From a virus (lineage: Monodnaviria > Loebvirae > Hofneiviricota > Faserviricetes > Tubulavirales > Inoviridae), in IMG/VR virus record IMGVR_UViG_2563366980_000001: a stretch of DNA of 11,692 nucleotides. One strand, given 5' to 3'. Position numbers and translations under genes: made by a program. The notes beneath the pieces are model-generated. The model was not told the origin of the DNA and did not search any database. It saw only the letters and a list, made by a program, of their open reading frames with translations. Shown in pieces: positions 1,310 to 11,692 of the stretch. How positions within the stretch are numbered: position 1 is the first letter of the stretch; every line of letters begins with the position of its first letter.

Positions 1310-2554
1310 TCAGTTCAGGTTGTCCCGGAACAGTTCACCGCTCCTCGCGGCGCTGCGGGGCGTCGCCCTGCTCCGGTCAACCTTTCTGACCTGAAGCATC
1401 ACCATAATATCAGTCTTGTTGCTTTCACTGGTACGGGAACCGAAGAAGCTCCAGCCGGAACTGGCCTTACTGTCTTTCTGTTCAGCAAGGCCACCAAGTA
1501 AAATAATATCACCATCTGCAAGGCTGACTTCGGTTGTTACATCACGCTTGATAAGGGTTGGCGAGTTATTGACGCCGGTTTCAGTGGTCACAAAGTTGGA
1601 AAGCTGCTGCTGAATCTTGAGATCCATTGTCCGACTTTTGATTGATGGCGTTACGTTAAACAAAACACCGCTGGAACGATATTCAACGGATTGCGTGGTC
1701 GTATTGTTATTCACCGTAACACTGCCCAGTACTGGCACATCAGAGCCGACTGAAAAAGACGCTGAGGCATTATTTTTTACCCGCAGTCGTGGCGCACTGA
1801 CAACAGTAAAACGACTGTCGGTTTTAAGCAGATTGAAAATGGCATCAATGGAGCCGGTTCGAATATTGATAAAATTATCCAGTCCGGCAGCACCAACTGA
1901 AATATTGAATTTATCAGACAGAATTTTAGCCGCTAAAAGAATGCCGGAGCCGTCAGACTGCGAGGTCTGAACCTCAAAAACATAACCAGAAACAACCACT
2001 TCATCACTCATCGTATCCAGCGAAGTGACCAGTGTTTTCAGGATGGCGATATCCTCTTTCGTACCATAATAAACCAGAATATCACCGGTTCGATTGATGT
2101 AGTTGCTTGCCCCTGATGAACCTTTTAGCGAATCGTCAGAAATCACGGCTCCACTGTTATTGAAGGAGCCTGAAACGTAGCCGCCAAGAATATCAGACAG
2201 GTAGGCAACAGAACGGTACTGAGGCGTATAAGTCCATGTATAACGTGGCTTAACCGGCTCTTTCGGCGTATAGGGCGCGATAAAATCAACACCCTTTTTC
2301 GTCCATATTCGAATGTTCATATTGCCAAGATAACGGGTTACAAATTCCCGTTCATCAATATCAGGTGTTAACCTGAATGTAATCATTCGTTCATCATTAA
2401 CAAGCTGTGGATCTAGCATATACGGGACTTTAAGCACCTCACTATAAATAAGAGAAATAGCCTCCGGTAGCTTGACTTTATTTAATTCAAGCTCTGACCC
2501 TGCGAAAGCACATGAAGAAAATAGTAGCGTTAATGCGAGTAAAATCTTTTTCAT
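1310..2554 (-). CDS. pIV-like secretin (filamentous phage export channel), 414 aa
   Basis: N-terminal signal peptide MKKILLALTLLFSSCAFA. Size and position (last gene of the assembly module, directly after the pI-like gene with a TAATG stop/start overlap at 2554) match gene IV of Ff-type phages. SD-like GGGGAA lies upstream. C-terminal region is Gly/Ser/Val-rich as in secretin domains. Confidence 0.75.
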   Translation of the reverse strand: MKKILLALTLLFSSCAFAGSELELNKVKLPEAISLIYSEVLKVPYMLDPQLVNDERMITFRLTPDIDEREFVTRYLGNMNIRIWTKKGVDFIAPYTPKEPVKPRYTWTYTPQYRSVAYLSDILGGYVSGSFNNSGAVISDDSLKGSSGASNYINRTGDILVYYGTKEDIAILKTLVTSLDTMSDEVVVSGYVFEVQTSQSDGSGILLAAKILSDKFNISVGAAGLDNFINIRTGSIDAIFNLLKTDSRFTVVSAPRLRVKNNASASFSVGSDVPVLGSVTVNNNTTTQSVEYRSSGVLFNVTPSIKSRTMDLKIQQQLSNFVTTETGVNNSPTLIKRDVTTEVSLADGDIILLGGLAEQKDSKASSGWSFFGSRTSESNKTDIMVMLQVRKVDRSRATPRSAARSGELFRDNLN

Positions 2555-3579
2555 TATTTTTTCCCCGTATAAAGCGTCACACGCTCACCATCAATAATTC
2601 CGCTCATCAACATCCCTTTGTAATTAAAACTGGATGCAGGAACGGCACGCAAAACACCGGCACCGTTAACAAGAATCACAAACGCCCTGCCTTCACTGGT
2701 CATTCTCCCTGATATACGCCACTCGGTTGAAAGTGGCGGTTCAGCTGGTTCTGAGGGAGTATCTGGTGCTGGAGTAGCAGCGGAAGAACGAAACATGGCC
2801 GCATCACGTACATCTGTTGTAGCCAAATCTGGCGAGGGATCGCTTCGGCCAAACGTGCTGAAAAATGAGTAAATCAGCCAGCCTGACCCGATAAACATCA
2901 ATGGAAAAAGCACAAGAAAGAACCTGACTTTGCCAGAATTCCAGATGCTCTGGCGTTTATCTGTCTGCTTTTCATTACCGTTATTTCCTTCATAGCTTTT
3001 ATAAAGTTCAAAAATATCAGGGTTATATTTATTGCGATAACTGGTGACGAGGTTGCTTTTATAGATTTTGTGGCCTGAATATACGTCAATGCAGTAATGA
3101 TTATTCAGGCCCAACGCTTTCAGCTTGCGCATCCGGTAAGTTGTTTCTATTTTGTCTTTCAGAAAGCGAGCAATATTAGAAAGTGACTGATTTACAATAA
3201 CCAAATCACAGCTAATACCCGTTTCAGGGTGCGTAAAATGACGATGTTCAGCAATAAATGATTTCTTCTCAGCCGTCATATCCTTATCGCTACCGAAGAT
3301 TCTCCATGCTTCATCAATAACAATTAAATCACCAAACTGGCAAAAGCTCCCTTCCCCACCTTTAAAAGGAAAGAAATCTGTTTTAAGCACATCATCATTA
3401 TCCACAACAATAATTTCTCCCGTTGCATCAGGATAACGTTCGGTGATTTTATCTTTTTGTAAACCATAAATGTTCGTCACAACTCTCCGGCCGCTGGTAA
3501 ATGCAGGAATAATGACATTGCAAACGGCTTCATAACTTTTTCCTGAGCCGGGTATGCCAATATATGCAGAAATAGCCAT
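2554..3579 (-). CDS. pI / Zot-like phage assembly NTPase, 341 aa
   Basis: N-terminal Walker A motif GIPGSGKS at residues 8-15 (MAISAYIGIPGSGKSYEAV), typical of gene I and Zot proteins. Internal hydrophobic segment FFLVLFPLMFIGSGWLIYSFF consistent with the single transmembrane helix of pI. SD-like GGGTGAG upstream of ATG. Confidence 0.85.
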   Translation of the reverse strand: MAISAYIGIPGSGKSYEAVCNVIIPAFTSGRRVVTNIYGLQKDKITERYPDATGEIIVVDNDDVLKTDFFPFKGGEGSFCQFGDLIVIDEAWRIFGSDKDMTAEKKSFIAEHRHFTHPETGISCDLVIVNQSLSNIARFLKDKIETTYRMRKLKALGLNNHYCIDVYSGHKIYKSNLVTSYRNKYNPDIFELYKSYEGNNGNEKQTDKRQSIWNSGKVRFFLVLFPLMFIGSGWLIYSFFSTFGRSDPSPDLATTDVRDAAMFRSSAATPAPDTPSEPAEPPLSTEWRISGRMTSEGRAFVILVNGAGVLRAVPASSFNYKGMLMSGIIDGERVTLYTGKK

Positions 3580-6181: not shown

Positions 6182-6499
6182 TCAGCCTTTTATTTCAGTA
6201 ATGCCGCCATCTGATGAAATGTTATAAGTTACTCCTTCCCTCCCCTCCATTGACCAGACGCGAACATATACAGGTATCTGGACTAACTTACCGATAAAAT
6301 TATTTGCCTGATTCATTACACCGGCATTAACAAGAGCCTGAGATACACGAATAATAATCTGGTCTTGCTTAGTGCCACCAAAACCATCAGGAATCTCTAA
6401 GCCAACACCAATTTCATTATAGTATCCCTGACCATTGACCTTATTACGCTGGCGAGCACCAAGCATTTTACCTTTTACAAAAAGACCATAATTAGACAT
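6182..6499 (-). CDS. pV-like ssDNA-binding protein (putative), 105 aa
   Basis: Immediately downstream of the replication gene with a strong SD (AAAGGAGAGTGATAT-ATG). Small Gly-rich basic protein at the position occupied by gene V or RstB in filamentous phages. Functional call is positional. Confidence 0.55.
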   Translation of the reverse strand: MSNYGLFVKGKMLGARQRNKVNGQGYYNEIGVGLEIPDGFGGTKQDQIIIRVSQALVNAGVMNQANNFIGKLVQIPVYVRVWSMEGREGVTYNISSDGGITEIKG

Positions 6500-6510
6500 A
6501 TCACTCTCCT

Positions 6511-7563
6511 TTAATGCCAGTTACTGGCATGTGAAATACGGTTATAATCGAAAATTAAACCTTTCTCATAAACCCATGATGGAATTTTGGCTGGTTTGGC
6601 TTCAAGAGTACGAACCAACGGAACAACGTTATTAGAATCCGGTGACTCACAATAAAAGTTAATATCTATTCCGAAAGAAAGTAATTCTTTACGGTGTCGG
6701 TAGAATGTAGGTTTCGGTAACATCTCTTTCATGTTCGCGCCCTGCTTCCACAATAAATATGTAGACTGTATTTTTCTTGGGAGATTAATTATTTTTTCAT
6801 CAGTTAATATGGTATTTTGATTCATTTCTATTCTCCCTACATAGTCAGAGAATAATTTATTGGGCGTCTCAATATTCCAGCTATTACCAAGCGTAAGATT
6901 CAAATCAATTAATTCAGTTGTTCTTAATGTTAATTCAATGCGTAATTTATCTTTTGACCAGTCCAGTAAACCAGCTTTAACGAATTCGTCTGCCATCTGG
7001 TGCCCTTTTTTGCCAGATGTATGCTCATCATATTTTGAATAAAATTTCAGGCTCCAACGACGGGAGTTTTTCCCTAAGTAAACAGTGCCACCTTTACCAC
7101 AGGCGCGACCGTGGCGAGTTTTAGCTTTAAATTCTGCGGCATATAACCATGCGCGGACATTTTCTAATGTTGACAATGAATACATGTAATTGATATCGAT
7201 GCGCGAGATCTTAAATTGCCCTTCCATGACCTGCCGATAGGATGGTAGATCATGAGGAATATGCAGTAATGCCAATATTCTGGCGTAAGCTGTTAACACC
7301 AACCCTTGCAAATCGTCGGAACCGATAACAGAGTGACCTTGCAAAAACTTTGATGGATTACCGTCAATGTAGAGATGTGTTGCCCGACCTTCACCATCAG
7401 ATCCAACAGACCTTACTTTCATTGTGGACTCATGCGAACCGCGAACTGTCAACCGTTTTACTGTTTCCCACTCCACTGCACCGTCAGCATTGACGCTGAC
7501 GACACTACCAGCCGGTAACGGTCGGTGTGTGCAAGGCAGGATTCCGGTAAACCAGTCGATCAT
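6511..7563 (-). CDS. Rolling-circle replication initiation protein (pII / RstA-like), 350 aa
   Basis: First gene of the minus-strand phage operon, divergent from the repressor gene. Size and position match filamentous-phage replication initiators. Family assignment from gene order and overall character, not a verified motif. Confidence 0.7.
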   Translation of the reverse strand: MIDWFTGILPCTHRPLPAGSVVSVNADGAVEWETVKRLTVRGSHESTMKVRSVGSDGEGRATHLYIDGNPSKFLQGHSVIGSDDLQGLVLTAYARILALLHIPHDLPSYRQVMEGQFKISRIDINYMYSLSTLENVRAWLYAAEFKAKTRHGRACGKGGTVYLGKNSRRWSLKFYSKYDEHTSGKKGHQMADEFVKAGLLDWSKDKLRIELTLRTTELIDLNLTLGNSWNIETPNKLFSDYVGRIEMNQNTILTDEKIINLPRKIQSTYLLWKQGANMKEMLPKPTFYRHRKELLSFGIDINFYCESPDSNNVVPLVRTLEAKPAKIPSWVYEKGLIFDYNRISHASNWH

Positions 7564-7734
7564 AAGTAGTCACACCCATCAAAATATGTGTCAATAGTCA
7601 TTTGTGAGCAGATTGAATGGTCACAATGTAATATGCTCAGATCTGACAGTCAATACATTTGCAATGTTTAAATTGTCAGAAATGAGCATCAAATCTAACT
7701 ATTGAAAAACCACTGTTAAGATGGAGCCAAGTAG
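7564..7734. promoter_or_regulatory. Divergent promoter/operator region between replication gene and repressor gene
   Basis: 171-bp AT-rich intergenic region between divergent start codons. Contains the perfect palindrome TCAGATCTGA (7637-7646), TGTGA-N12-TCACA (7604-7625), direct repeats of GTCAATA (7590-7596, 7649-7655) and repeated TGAGCA/TGCTCA half-sites (7605-7610, 7633-7638, 7683-7688). GGAG SD at 7723-7726 precedes the repressor ATG. Confidence 0.55.
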
Positions 7735-8181
7735 ATGGGCAACAATGAGCATGAAGTTATGGCGGACAAACAGAGAGCAGAACGTATCAAAAAGGTAATT
7801 CTGGAACACTCGACTTATGAAGAACTGGCCGAGAAGACTGGCATTAGCGTGAGTACGCTGGTCAGGATAGCGTCCGGCAAAACTGAACCTAAATTCAGTG
7901 ACATCATTCAGATAGCTAAAATTACTGGTGCAGACTTAAACACCTTAGCTTATGGCTATGCTCTTGATGTTAAAGAAGAAGCTACCGAGCGGAAGCTAAT
8001 CACTTCTGCGGATGGATATACTGATGAAGAAACCACTAACGCACATAATTTCATCGTGTGGAACATCAGGACACTGGAAAAACAAGATATTCTGGCACTC
8101 GCAAGGCAGGTTTCTGCCTTAAGTTCATACACTTACAGTACTAAAATGTTTATGAAAAAAGCGGTGTCTGGAGAAGAGTAA
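7735..8181 (+). CDS. XRE-family helix-turn-helix transcriptional regulator (putative prophage repressor), 148 aa
   Basis: HTH signature TYEELAEKTGISVSTLVRIASGK near the N-terminus. Divergent from the replication gene, as rstR is from rstA in CTXphi-type phages. SD GGAG 8 nt upstream. An alternative start at the internal Met (codon 9) is possible. Confidence 0.85.
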   Translation: MGNNEHEVMADKQRAERIKKVILEHSTYEELAEKTGISVSTLVRIASGKTEPKFSDIIQIAKITGADLNTLAYGYALDVKEEATERKLITSADGYTDEETTNAHNFIVWNIRTLEKQDILALARQVSALSSYTYSTKMFMKKAVSGEE

Positions 8182-8192
8182 AAGGATTAACA

Positions 8193-8245
8193 GTCTCAGG
8201 AATGAGACAAACGTGCAGTATTACCAACACTGCACGTTCTTTATT
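8193..8245 (+). terminator. Tandem hairpins after the repressor gene, the second a rho-independent terminator
   Basis: GTCTCA-GGAA-TGAGAC (8193-8208), then ACGTGCAGT-ATTACCAAC-ACTGCACGT (9-bp perfect stem, 8211-8237) followed by TCTTTATT. Confidence 0.6.
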
Positions 8246-8280
8246 GCGCGAATTTTGAACAGTGAAAAAGGATCAAAAGG

Positions 8281-8703
8281 ATGAGTAGAAATAACGAAAC
8301 AAGCGGCGTTGAACTGGTTGTCGTGGGCATATTTGCTTTCTGTCTGGCAGTTGTTGCCTGGCTAATGAAAACTTTCGATGTTGAATGGCAAACAGCTCTG
8401 GAAACTGCGCCTAGCCTGATAGTCTGGCTGCTTGTTGTTGGGGCGGGGATCTTTTTCGGGATCAAAATGGAAACAGGTCTTGTTCGCTGGGGTGCTCCAC
8501 TGGCGATTGCCCTTCTGATTCCGGTATTCAAACCAATCCTTAAGGAAGCTGCCGGAGTACGTGAAACGGGTGGATTGGTTTTCGATGATATGGTTTCGTG
8601 GTATGGAACTGGCTGGGGAATGTCGTTGATGTTTTTCGGAATTCTTATCATCGGATACGGGCTGCTTTATTGGTGGCACAGAAGAAATTCATATCACTGG
8701 TAA
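8281..8703 (+). CDS. hypothetical integral membrane protein with four predicted TM helices, 140 aa (cargo gene 1)
   Basis: Four hydrophobic segments of about 18-20 residues (VELVVVGIFAFCLAVVAWL, LIVWLLVVGAGIFFGI, WGAPLAIALLIPVF, MSLMFFGILIIGYGLLYWW). AAAAAGGA/AAAGG SD-like sequence just upstream of ATG. Not part of the canonical filamentous-phage gene set. No family recognised. Confidence 0.6.
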   Translation: MSRNNETSGVELVVVGIFAFCLAVVAWLMKTFDVEWQTALETAPSLIVWLLVVGAGIFFGIKMETGLVRWGAPLAIALLIPVFKPILKEAAGVRETGGLVFDDMVSWYGTGWGMSLMFFGILIIGYGLLYWWHRRNSYHW

Positions 8704-10103: not shown

Positions 10104-11426
10104 TTACTTAATACCGTATTCTCGGCTTAACCGACCGTGCAACCTCAACACATTGGTTTCAACTGCCGTCACCACGTTCTCCGGAAAATCTGTCGGTAAT
10201 GAAGTCTTCACGTTATCCAGTGCTGCCGGAATCATTCTGGCAAAGTCACTCAGGATTTCATGCATCTGCACTTCCGGGAATTTCAGCACCTTTGCTGTCG
10301 CCAGAAAATGTCGCGGATAAATTTTATCGATTGCCGTTTTTTTGCCTTTGGATGCGTTAAGCCCCATTGCCAGTTTGAGATCGCTGATGTGTATTCCCGT
10401 ACCGCCAAGGACCGGAAATGCCGAAATGATGTCATAAAATGGTGTGAGCCGATAACTGCCGCCAGCCTGAATAAATACGGAGAAGTTTTTTGCATGGCCA
10501 TCTGTTGCGCCAATCAACCACTGGAAGACCTGAAACTTCATAAAATCATAGCGATCTTTCAGCGCCTCGCTGGACCCCATCAAAAAAGCCATAATTTGCG
10601 CGATACCGGGGCCTCCATCTGATTCATATTTCACCGATGAAGGTAAACCGAATGTCTGGCACATATCCTCCTGTGGCAAGCGAAGTAAAACCGTTCGCTC
10701 AGTATTCCAACGCCTGTCAAAACGTTTGACCGCTAACGCGCGCACCCTTCCCGCTTTAATGATTTCTGCGTCCGGAACATTCAACCCGAGTTCTTTCGCC
10801 AGCAGCAAACAGTAATACTCATTATCAACGCTTTGGCTAAGATCGAGCGTCGCATTGGGCTGTCTGATTTCGCCAATCGGCAATTTGATAATGTGCGTCG
10901 TTGGCGTTATTCCCTTCGGAATGCACCAGTCATTGCCTATTCTGAGCAGCGCAGTCTTCTCCTGTGCGCCAGCAACCGAGATGCGAAAGTCATTTTCTTC
11001 TCTAATCATGCCTAACGGGATATCTGCTTTATAAGCCGTTAATACTTCTTCAAGTCTGGCTTCAGTAAGCTTTTCCCATGCCATTATCGGACACATTACG
11101 GTTTCATCTTCGGGGATTAACGTCACGGCACCAACGCTGTCTCGCCCTATTTCTGACAATAAATCAAACGGTTGTCTGGATTTAGCATGATAACGTTTAA
11201 CGATCCGGTCACGTACAATCGGGCTATCGGGTAACAGGTTATCGAAGAAGTTAAATACGGCATCAGAGGTGATATTCCTCCTCTGCAATGGCAGCGAAAG
11301 TGACAACGGTCTGGCATAACGGCTGGCTAACCACTCAGGTGCATACTTAAAGGTGTGCGCGCCGTTGGCTAACTTCGTTAACTCGCCTACCCGCTGGTTG
11401 TTCATCCAAGTGACTAGTTTAGGCAT
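10104..11426 (-). CDS. hipA: HipA serine/threonine kinase toxin (type II TA system), 440 aa
   Basis: Translation from the ATG at 11426 (MPKLVTWMNNQRVGELTKLANGAHTFKYAPEWLASRYARPLSLSLPLQR...) is recognisably near-identical to E. coli HipA as I recall it. The start overlaps the hipB stop (ATGA). The ORF-track entry begins 19 codons further upstream in frame, but those codons overlap hipB. Confidence 0.95.
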   Translation of the reverse strand: MPKLVTWMNNQRVGELTKLANGAHTFKYAPEWLASRYARPLSLSLPLQRRNITSDAVFNFFDNLLPDSPIVRDRIVKRYHAKSRQPFDLLSEIGRDSVGAVTLIPEDETVMCPIMAWEKLTEARLEEVLTAYKADIPLGMIREENDFRISVAGAQEKTALLRIGNDWCIPKGITPTTHIIKLPIGEIRQPNATLDLSQSVDNEYYCLLLAKELGLNVPDAEIIKAGRVRALAVKRFDRRWNTERTVLLRLPQEDMCQTFGLPSSVKYESDGGPGIAQIMAFLMGSSEALKDRYDFMKFQVFQWLIGATDGHAKNFSVFIQAGGSYRLTPFYDIISAFPVLGGTGIHISDLKLAMGLNASKGKKTAIDKIYPRHFLATAKVLKFPEVQMHEILSDFARMIPAALDNVKTSLPTDFPENVVTAVETNVLRLHGRLSREYGIK

Positions 11427-11692
11427 CACCACTCCAGATCTTGCTGTTCTGTTGCTTCTGGCGAGGCATTTTTTGCGTCGCATAGCGTCATTGAGAGTTC
11501 AAGCGACTGTAAAATCTTAAAAAATGTCGTGAGCGAGGTATTGTTAGGATTGTTTTCGAAATTGGAAATTGTCGCCTGCTTAATGCCGATTTTTTTCGCC
11601 AACTCGCTCTGCGTCCAGCCGTTTTGCTGGCGAACCAGTTTCATTGCATTCGCCAATTGCATTGGGCTATAGATCTTCTGAAAGCTCATCAT
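11426..11692 (-). CDS. hipB: HipB antitoxin, HTH (XRE-type) DNA-binding protein, 88 aa
   Basis: MMSFQKIYSPMQLANAMKLVRQQNGWTQSELAKKIGIKQATISNFEN... matches E. coli HipB. The start codon lies at the window edge (11690-11692). The stop overlaps the hipA start. Confidence 0.95.
   Translation of the reverse strand: MMSFQKIYSPMQLANAMKLVRQQNGWTQSELAKKIGIKQATISNFENNPNNTSLTTFFKILQSLELSMTLCDAKNASPEATEQQDLEW

Follow-up and report, generated by a model that had tools for sequence, protein, structure and literature searches.

The DNA analysed here, a window of 11,692 bp, is 100% identical to positions 1652577-1664268 of the Escherichia coli UTI89 chromosome in a search of E. coli genomes, and holds a complete dif-integrated filamentous prophage, CUS-1, which is already published. 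UTI89 we take to be an O18:K1:H7 strain. The CUS-1 prophage of E. coli O18:K1:H7 shares 99% identity over 7.1 kb with the Yersinia pestis phage YpfPhi (PMC4266046). Our subject is the intergenic region of this prophage at 7564-7734, which separates the gene for the replication initiator, Rep, from a divergent gene encoding a 148-aa repressor of the helix-turn-helix (HTH) type. We consider this region likely to be the immunity and control region of CUS-1, in which operators for the repressor would overlie the promoter of the replication gene (P_rep), the whole lying within an exchangeable cassette that would set the immunity type. An initial annotation had placed a candidate lysogeny switch here, and its coordinates proved exact, the 171-bp gap running between two divergent start codons, the Rep ATG (7563, minus strand) and the start of the 148-aa open reading frame (ORF; 7735, plus strand). 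The features of the region and of its immediate neighbours are as follows, mismatches being counted against the operator consensus given below.

6511-7563, minus strand: replication initiator gene Rep, G2P/Phage_CRI family (PF05144, E=1e-73, and PF05155), heading the leftward operon
7564-7734: divergent intergenic control region, 171 bp, 34.5% G+C
7589-7597: conserved block TGTCAATAG, the first GTCAATA repeat, adjoining s1
7595-7610: candidate operator s1 (distal), TAGTCAtttgTGAGCA, two mismatches, centre at -132.5 from the repressor ATG, at about +8 to +23 of P_rep
7625-7630, minus strand: predicted P_rep -10 box TACATT, with a 17-bp spacer to the -35 box
7634-7649: candidate operator s2, TGCTCAgatcTGACAG, three mismatches, filling the P_rep spacer (about -31 to -16) and containing the 10-bp palindrome 7637-7646
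7648-7653, minus strand: predicted P_rep -35 box TTGACT, within the second GTCAATA repeat; top promoter score, 13.4
7673-7688: candidate operator s3 (proximal), TTGTCAgaaaTGAGCA, centre 54.5 bp upstream of the repressor ATG, at about -70 to -55 of P_rep
7714-7722, plus strand: candidate extended -10 TGtTAAGAT of P_R, the repressor's own promoter; positionally conserved, assignment uncertain
7723-7726, plus strand: Shine-Dalgarno-like GGAG, 8 nt upstream of the repressor ATG, with a purine-rich equivalent in the type-A relatives examined
7735-8181, plus strand: 148-aa HTH_3 repressor gene, homologue of YpfPhi YPO2273
7736-7751: possible operator s4, TGGGCAacaaTGAGCA, two mismatches, over repressor codons 1-6
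8193-8250: conserved two-hairpin element at the right border of the exchangeable cassette; fold as single-stranded DNA (ssDNA) z=-4.2

The initial annotation had rested its case on a density of symmetric motifs, nearly all of which were found as described. The perfect 10-bp palindrome TCAGATCTGA lies at 7637-7646, two GTCAATA direct repeats begin at 7590 and 7649, 59 bp apart, and the three TGAGCA/TGCTCA half-sites stand at 7605 and 7683 (TGAGCA) and at 7634 (TGCTCA), with a fourth TGAGCA at 7746 within the repressor ORF. Both arms of the reported TGTGA-N12-TCACA inverted repeat are present (7603-7625), with a spacer of 13 nt and not 12; the first arm is TATGA in YpfPhi and TCTGA in the relative L014, and because the repeat is broken in both it is best read, on this comparison, as a chance feature. 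When the region was set against 2000 dinucleotide-preserving shuffles of itself, none of these features proved unusual: P is 0.20 for a perfect palindrome of at least 10 bp, 0.42 for the 5-bp inverted-repeat count, 0.80 for a direct repeat of at least 7 bp and 0.54 for a hexamer present three times over both strands. Every listed motif being within shuffle expectation, motif density alone is no evidence, and the case must rest on comparison with relatives. The sole nominally unusual item had not been listed: a 27-nt imperfect inverted repeat, 7633-7659/7663-7689 (P=0.016 in the shuffles), which as ssDNA folds at -13.1 kcal/mol (z=-3.8).

Candidate operators and the replication promoter

The relatives compared have repressors with 85, 75, 72, 60, 57 and 55% identity to that of CUS-1 and were taken with their flanking DNA; more came from IMG/VR and from a Vibrio inovirus, and individual sequences are given here by L numbers. 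L018, L020 and L022 have a perfect TGCTCA-N4-TGAGCA with its centre 53.5-54.5 bp ahead of the repressor ATG, and from these perfect palindromes the operator consensus, a 16-bp dyad, was taken. A second dyad stands at -135.5 in L018 and in L020, the latter being a phage of Aeromonas veronii with Rep_trans (RstA family) and CTX_RstB as its replication genes. Dyads recur at fixed offsets (approximately -54.5 and -132.5/-135.5) across relatives with 55-100% repressor identity: the counterpart of s3 precedes the repressor ATG by 52.5-56.5 bp in the relatives examined, and by 54.5 bp in most of them, as the perfect consensus in L018, L020 and L022 and as GGACA-N4-TGTCC in L011 and L015, and the counterpart of s1 at -132.5 to -135.5. 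In CUS-1, s2 is exactly midway between s1 and s3, with centres 39 bp apart, and at its position L014 has a perfect 14-bp palindrome, GGTCAgatcTGACC. The equivalent of s4 in L014 is TGAGCAacacTGAGCA; the conservation of this site, which lies in coding sequence, is ambiguous, and it is absent from more distant relatives. Within the 11.7-kb window the consensus is matched with at most two mismatches four times, against 0.54 expected, a count reached in 0 of 200 shuffles, and three of the four matches cluster in 7595-7751. This comparative evidence points to the TGAGCA and TGCTCA hexamers as half-sites of 16-bp dyads that the repressor would bind, at three or four sites. No description of YpfPhi or CUS-1 operators was found in the searchable literature.

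Constraint on the sites was measured in nine distinct variants that agree in their recognition helix (CUS-1, YpfPhi, L014 and six IMG/VR sequences), all with the CUS-1 type of cassette, type A; types B and C are described below. The half-site columns of s1-s3 are variable at 3 of 36 positions, as against 59 of the 135 other intergenic columns (Fisher P=6e-5), whereas the N4 spacers vary at 6 of 12 (P=0.004 against the half-sites). In s1 the spacer alone varies among close variants (tttg, ttta, cttc, cttt), and the single base by which the control regions of CUS-1 and YpfPhi differ, 7604 G>A, falls within it. The s2 spacer, gatc, becomes gttc in L034 and cttc in L037, and since the half-sites are kept while the centre changes, the functional unit would be the 16-bp dyad, and not the 10-bp palindrome or its GATC; the palindrome put forward in the initial annotation is thus part of a candidate operator, as the core of the weaker s2, without being the unit of function. 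It might still be argued that all of these motifs arose by chance in an AT-rich spacer and have no regulatory meaning, a reading that the agreement of every listed motif with shuffle expectation and the unconserved TGTGA-N13-TCACA repeat would favour. This reading was already disfavoured, and we regard it as very improbable indeed, for consensus sites cluster in the region, their positions are kept across genera and the half-sites are significantly less variable than the rest.

The repressor belongs to the Cro/C1-type (XRE) proteins, with a Pfam HTH_3 match of 38.1 bits against a gathering cutoff of 23; it matches phrog_3557 in PHROG over its full length (residues 1-148, E=4e-74) and is 100% identical to the YpfPhi protein. 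No Pfam match was found outside the HTH families, and so none to an S24 peptidase or other self-cleavage domain of the lambda CI/LexA kind. An AlphaFold2 (AF2) model is confident for the HTH domain only (residues 12-73), which agrees with the five-helix fold of these proteins and in which the recognition helix is helix 3, and predicts a helical C-terminus. With this model Foldseek retrieved the 434 Cro, P22 c2 and SinR N-terminal domains at root-mean-square deviations of 1.4-1.6 Å (434 Cro at 1.4 Å, with 31% identity; P22 c2 at 1.4-1.5 Å), while a sequence search of the PDB with the repressor gave marginal matches only. Both 434 Cro and P22 c2 bind dyad operators as dimers. As to the start of the protein, Met9 is invariant in all homologues and is where the alignment with the CTXphi repressor RstR begins; the first eight codons (the 7735-7761 stretch) are variable and overlap the possible s4, and an alternative start codon may be used.

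The recognition helix, ISVSTLVRI (residues 37-45), is unchanged in phages with GCTCA-type half-sites, even where overall identity is 55-60%, with the one exception of V39I in L022. In L011 and L015 (72-75% identity) it reads INVRTLVRI, that is S38N and S40R, and this helix is paired with AGACA/GGACA-N4-TGTCT/TGTCC dyads at the same two positions, all of them perfect: AGACAaatgTGTCT and GGACAtattTGTCC in L011, which has additional GGACA half-sites, and AGACAaaagTGTCT and GGACAgataTGTCC in L015. The Vibrio inoviruses L024 and L042, whose helix IGSRTLLRI also has Arg at position 40, carry the xGACA dyads GTGACAattgTGTCTC or TAGACAttaaTGTCTG at -53.5/-52.5. Position 40 presumably aligns with recognition-helix residue 2, the base-contacting Gln29 of 434 repressor. 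In the sequences compared, candidate operator half-sites and recognition helix change together. Repeated dyads over the regulated promoter, purifying selection on them and co-variation with the protein, by which a repressor-operator immunity region can be recognized in sequence, were all found, and the core of the initial annotation, several operators for the adjacent HTH repressor that would act on a replication promoter, gains support from evidence independent of its own: among related prophages the half-sites are kept, the spacers vary and the half-sites co-vary with the recognition helix.

Two promoter searches, a consensus scan and a position-weight scan, picked the same single best candidate, and P_rep is predicted to be a strong sigma-70 promoter facing Rep. 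The predicted transcription start near 7618 would leave a 5' leader of approximately 54 nt ahead of the Rep ATG. Every type-A relative retrieved (L011, L014, L015, L018, L020 and L022) has an equivalent, scoring 13-14 and equally far from the repressor ATG, with TTGAC(T/A/G) at -35 and TATATT, TAGCAT, TAACAT, TAGGAT or TATCTT as the aligned -10 hexamers; P_rep counterparts are also present in cassette types B and C, and among the nine close variants only -10 position 3 and -35 position 6 vary within the boxes. The second GTCAATA is the P_rep -35 read on the opposite strand. Of the two repeats once offered as operators, then, the copy at 7649 belongs to predicted P_rep as its -35 box, and the copy at 7590 is conserved, the TGTCAA of its block showing little or no variation in types A and B and in the Aeromonas phage. 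A second Rep promoter starting from this first TGTCAA (TTGACA on the minus strand, a perfect -35) was considered and rejected, as no credible -10 follows it. On the repressor side, T1, A2, A5, T6 and the upstream TG of TGtTAAGAT are invariant in the nine variants and positions 3-4 vary, a pattern that fits a -10 hexamer, and relatives have TAGTAT, TAGGAT or TAGAAT at this place.

Exchange of the regulator cassette

A distant BLAST search of 7400-8300 against 5,426 complete E. coli genomes found the CUS-1 version of the control region in 99, where it is nearly invariant. Other E. coli prophages are 85-94% identical in their matching flanks, at the beginning of the Rep gene on one side and beyond the regulator on the other, and have a different regulator and different intergenic content. 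In type B the regulator is a 150-aa protein, 42% identical to that of CUS-1 and likewise a member of phrog_3557 (E=1e-68), beside a 167-bp intergenic region with no clear repeated site at offsets like those of s1-s3. In type C (L004/L005, 2665-2833) an unrelated 60-aa protein (phrog_2503) stands beside a 169-bp intergenic region in which TGAGTTCA occurs three times in direct orientation, at -126, -79 and -55 counted from the ATG of that protein; the copy at -79 overlaps the Rep -35 box, and this protein looks like a different small regulator for the same task. Homology among types A, B and C breaks off at the Rep ATG and resumes directly after the regulator stop codon; a CTXphi-like arrangement, in which a repressor divergent from the replication gene forms an exchangeable cassette with the intergenic region, is thus present here in three types. 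The cassette (7564 to ~8190) is swapped as one unit and would define the immunity type, with heteroimmunity expected between types, and the proposal that the region sets immunity specificity draws its support from this joint exchange of regulator and intergenic DNA.

The right border is formed by the element at 8193-8250, whose two hairpins, GTCTCA-ggaa-TGAGAC and then ACGTGCAGT-attaccaac-ACTGCACGT, are kept in all cassette types (also in L002-L005, L011 and L014); in type C the first stem has a compensatory double change (GTACCA...TGGTAC). Phage homology stops just past CACGTTCT. The 11-mer CACGTTCTTTA matches a stretch of the nick region in the Ff plus origin exactly, but here it is found on the strand that is antisense to Rep. 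An origin, a terminator and a recombination joint are all possible roles for the element.

Whether ssDNA structure could also explain the inverted repeat at 7633-7689, as a minus-strand origin, a packaging signal or a Rep nick-site hairpin and not an operator array, has to be considered. Filamentous phages (Ff) place such hairpins in intergenic regions, and the shuffle and fold values given above are unusual. The hairpin is, however, not kept in L014 (z=-1.5), a relative with the same operators and a repressor of 85% identity, and it is absent from the GGACA-type and more distant relatives. Its arms are the inversely oriented s2 and s3 with short flanks, which accounts for most of the complementarity. 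Moreover, region and regulator are exchanged jointly beside a Rep flank that stays 85-94% identical, although an origin should travel with Rep, and the conserved 8193-8250 element, with its compensatory stem change, is the better structured alternative. A search of Rfam gave no significant match, only a far sub-threshold hairpin of miRNA type. The hairpin being unconserved in L014, this reading was rejected, and we hold it to be improbable.

Host control of the promoter deserves separate consideration. The YpfPhi homologue of Rep, YPO2274, is needed for phage production, and the intergenic region has been described in a review as 'believed to be involved in transcription initiation'; in Y. pestis the host protein RovA, a repressor of YPO2274-2279, binds the putative promoter region of YPO2274, and loss of RovA de-represses these genes (PMC4266046). 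The RovA-bound region would be the equivalent of 7564-7734. It is conceivable that P_rep is governed by host factors only, through silencing of the RovA/SlyA or H-NS type or through Dam at the spacer GATC, with the HTH protein having some other role and the dyads being incidental. The AT-richness of the region would suit such silencing, and the sequence AGATCT, containing a Dam GATC, is present in the Rep promoter spacer of types A and B (7638-7643 in the window and ~2748-2753 in L002), which hints at methylation-sensitive expression. Yet this GATC is lost in the close type-A variants L034 and L037, no SlyA, LexA, CRP or IHF consensus was found in the region, and host control leaves unexplained the fixed dyad positions, the constraint on the half-sites, their co-variation with the recognition helix and their exchange with the regulator. 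Host factors acting alone are in our judgement unlikely, and it is more likely that host control is an added layer instead of an alternative to the repressor operators.

Known systems and a proposed switch

The initial annotation had likened the region to the rstR-rstA intergenic region of CTXphi (ig-2), an analogy that holds for the divergent layout and the exchangeable cassette and fails for the proteins. In both phages an HTH repressor gene diverges from the replication gene, across 125 bp in CTXphi, and a structured region follows the repressor gene. The rstR and ig-2 cassette is said, in papers by Kimsey and Waldor, to differ between heteroimmune CTXphi types. The CUS-1 repressor, however, scores only 19.7 bits, in the HTH alone, against a cutoff of 80 for the RstR family (NCBIfam NF041951, phage_RstR), and BLASTP gives 26% identity to El Tor RstR over 78 aa, again HTH only. 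The replication proteins differ too, CUS-1 Rep being G2P/Phage_CRI and that of CTXphi RstA/Rep_trans; in CUS-1 the Rep_trans match is below cutoff and similarity to RstA nil (E=1.1), and the gene after Rep is Putative_G5P, not CTX_RstB, so that the RstA+RstB pair of CTXphi RS2 is not present. RstR acts on the CTXphi replication promoter as dimers of dimers (PMC8402870); the candidate operators of CUS-1 are short 16-bp dyads, unlike those of CTXphi.

The shared gene layout raises the question of whether LexA co-represses the replication promoter of CUS-1, making the switch SOS-inducible, since ig-2 of CTXphi is reported to have such dual control (Quinones et al., 2005, as cited in PMC8402870). 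Between 7500 and 7800 we found 0 matches to the LexA box, either as CTGT-N8-ACAG with at most one mismatch or as the 20-mer consensus with at most six, and the repressor, with its predicted helical C-terminus, has no detectable S24 peptidase domain for RecA-stimulated self-cleavage. There is very little probability in our view that CUS-1 is controlled in this way.

The lambdoid regions (lambda OR, 434 and P22) resemble the CUS-1 region in the Cro/C1-type fold of the regulator and in having several dyads, with conserved half-sites and a variable centre, over divergent promoters; their immunity specificity is set by recognition-helix residues, as we propose for CUS-1. Unlike them, CUS-1 has no Cro-like antagonist gene and no S24 domain, its sites are 39 bp apart instead of adjacent, and the gene regulated would be the rolling-circle initiator of a non-lytic phage. 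Pf4r of the Pseudomonas phage Pf4 is also a filamentous-prophage repressor, one that controls superinfection and binds as a dimer at promoter-proximal sites (PMC8402870), but it is P2 C-like, recognizes non-palindromic direct repeats and belongs to an unrelated family. Closest of all is YpfPhi (CUS-2), which agrees with CUS-1 in gene order, in dif integration and, but for the one base, in the YPO2273-YPO2274 control region, the accessory genes next to attL being different (orf1/orf1a in CUS-1, YPO2271/2272 in YpfPhi). A resident YpfPhi gives partial protection against superinfection, and in 2014 the role of the YPO2273 regulator was reviewed as still undemonstrated (PMC4266046). Taken with the structural model, these likenesses suggest that the CUS-1 switch works in the manner of CTXphi rstR/ig-2, its nearest analogue in function, with a DNA-binding domain resembling those of 434 and P22 in a member of PHROG 3557.

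Our current working hypothesis is that P_rep drives Rep and probably the downstream genes for ssDNA-binding, coat and assembly proteins, and that dimers of the 148-aa repressor would bind the 16-bp dyads TGCTCA-N4-TGAGCA. Of these, s2 would lie within the promoter spacer, s1 just past the predicted start and s3 upstream, near the repressor's own promoter, with s4 possibly over the first codons. Occupation of the dyads would turn P_rep off, keeping the prophage quiet and blocking replication of an incoming phage of the same type, and through s3 and s4 the repressor probably regulates itself. Repressor binding, the positions of the transcription starts, autoregulation and heteroimmunity between cassette types are what we infer from sequence comparison.

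Besides the shuffling results, several observations weigh against this interpretation. Each CUS-1 operator has one good half-site only, and s2, with its poor fit of three mismatches to the consensus, has no counterpart in the more distant relatives. Spacings of 39 and 78 bp are non-integral numbers of helical turns and so give no indication of cooperative looping. Nor is the constraint test wholly independent, as s1 and s3 were first spotted on an alignment to which one of the nine variants belonged. Several plus-strand candidates for P_R were scored and none is convincing, being weak or in conflict with the conserved Shine-Dalgarno sequence; were TGtTAAGAT the -10 element, transcription would start only about 5 nt ahead of the ATG, downstream of the conserved GGAG. 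Finally, an identical HTH is found without an operator on plasmids, which means that the pairing of protein and site is not universal.

These plasmids are IncP-like and conjugative, of approximately 41 kb, and occur in E. coli and Salmonella; they carry a homologue of the repressor of 122-141 aa, with clusters on hundreds of contigs. In the example analysed (L046, NZ_CP189666.1, 4779-5150) the HTH is identical to that of the CUS-1 repressor and nucleotide identity is 91% over 143 bp (window 7774-7916), and no cognate operator was found on the plasmid at any spacing from 0 to 13. The A. veronii contig L020 (2331-2500) encodes a CUS-1-type repressor with 57% identity and the same recognition helix, and has operators at the same offsets, perfect or near-perfect as TGCTCA/TGGTCA-N4-TGAGCA; its combination of Rep_trans/CTX_RstB with this repressor means that the cassette crosses the boundaries of replication modules. 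A bolder proposal, which we put forward as speculative and rather doubtful, is that the PHROG-3557 repressor and its 16-bp dyads form a portable immunity cassette shared among inoviruses whose replication proteins are unrelated (G2P in E. coli and Yersinia, Rep_trans/RstA-family in Aeromonas), with a readable code in which Ser at residue 40 goes with GCTCA half-sites and Arg with GACA half-sites, and that the orphan copy on the plasmid could silence a CUS-1-type replication promoter in trans. If true, this would amount to plasmid-borne immunity against filamentous phages.

The CUS-1 prophage and the significance of its control region

The remainder of the window agrees with what has been described for CUS-1 and YpfPhi, the Pfam domains following the order secretin, Zot, pVI-like, pIII-like/puvA, coat, G5P, Rep and divergent regulator. 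Beyond the genes already listed, these are:

1310-2554, minus strand: secretin gene (Pfam)
2554-3579, minus strand: Zot/pI gene (Pfam)
between the Zot and G5P genes, minus strand: pVI-like gene, 570-aa pIII-like gene (puvA) and coat genes
6182-6499, minus strand: G5P-like ssDNA-binding protein gene (Putative_G5P, Pfam)

Two further ORFs besides the 148-aa gene are on the plus strand. An intact and perfect 28-bp dif at 411-438 forms the left end of the prophage, as integration at dif entails, and hipA/hipB lie just past its right end (10104-11692). Whole-window megablast against the phage collection gave no match. Elsewhere, a 9,565-bp circular 'untypable plasmid' of E. coli TUM14759 (L045, NZ_CP128883.1) is a complete CUS-1-type phage genome with an identical repressor and appears to be an episomal replicative form; the TUM14759 chromosome also matches the control region. 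Several genomes have at least two copies of the control region, among them NU14, in which two copies approximately 9.6 kb apart suggest tandem prophages, as described for YpfPhi.

The control region was known before and the proposed switch is no new kind of mechanism, but its operators had not been spelled out until now. What is gained are concrete coordinates for the candidate operators and the predicted replication promoter of a pair of phages, CUS-1 and YpfPhi, that have been connected with fitness in invasive E. coli K1 and in the plague bacillus, together with a rule that would tie recognition-helix residues to half-site sequence. With at least three alternative immunity cassettes among the dif prophages of E. 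coli, immunity groups would become predictable from sequence, and the cassette types may help to explain tandem and mixed lysogeny at dif.

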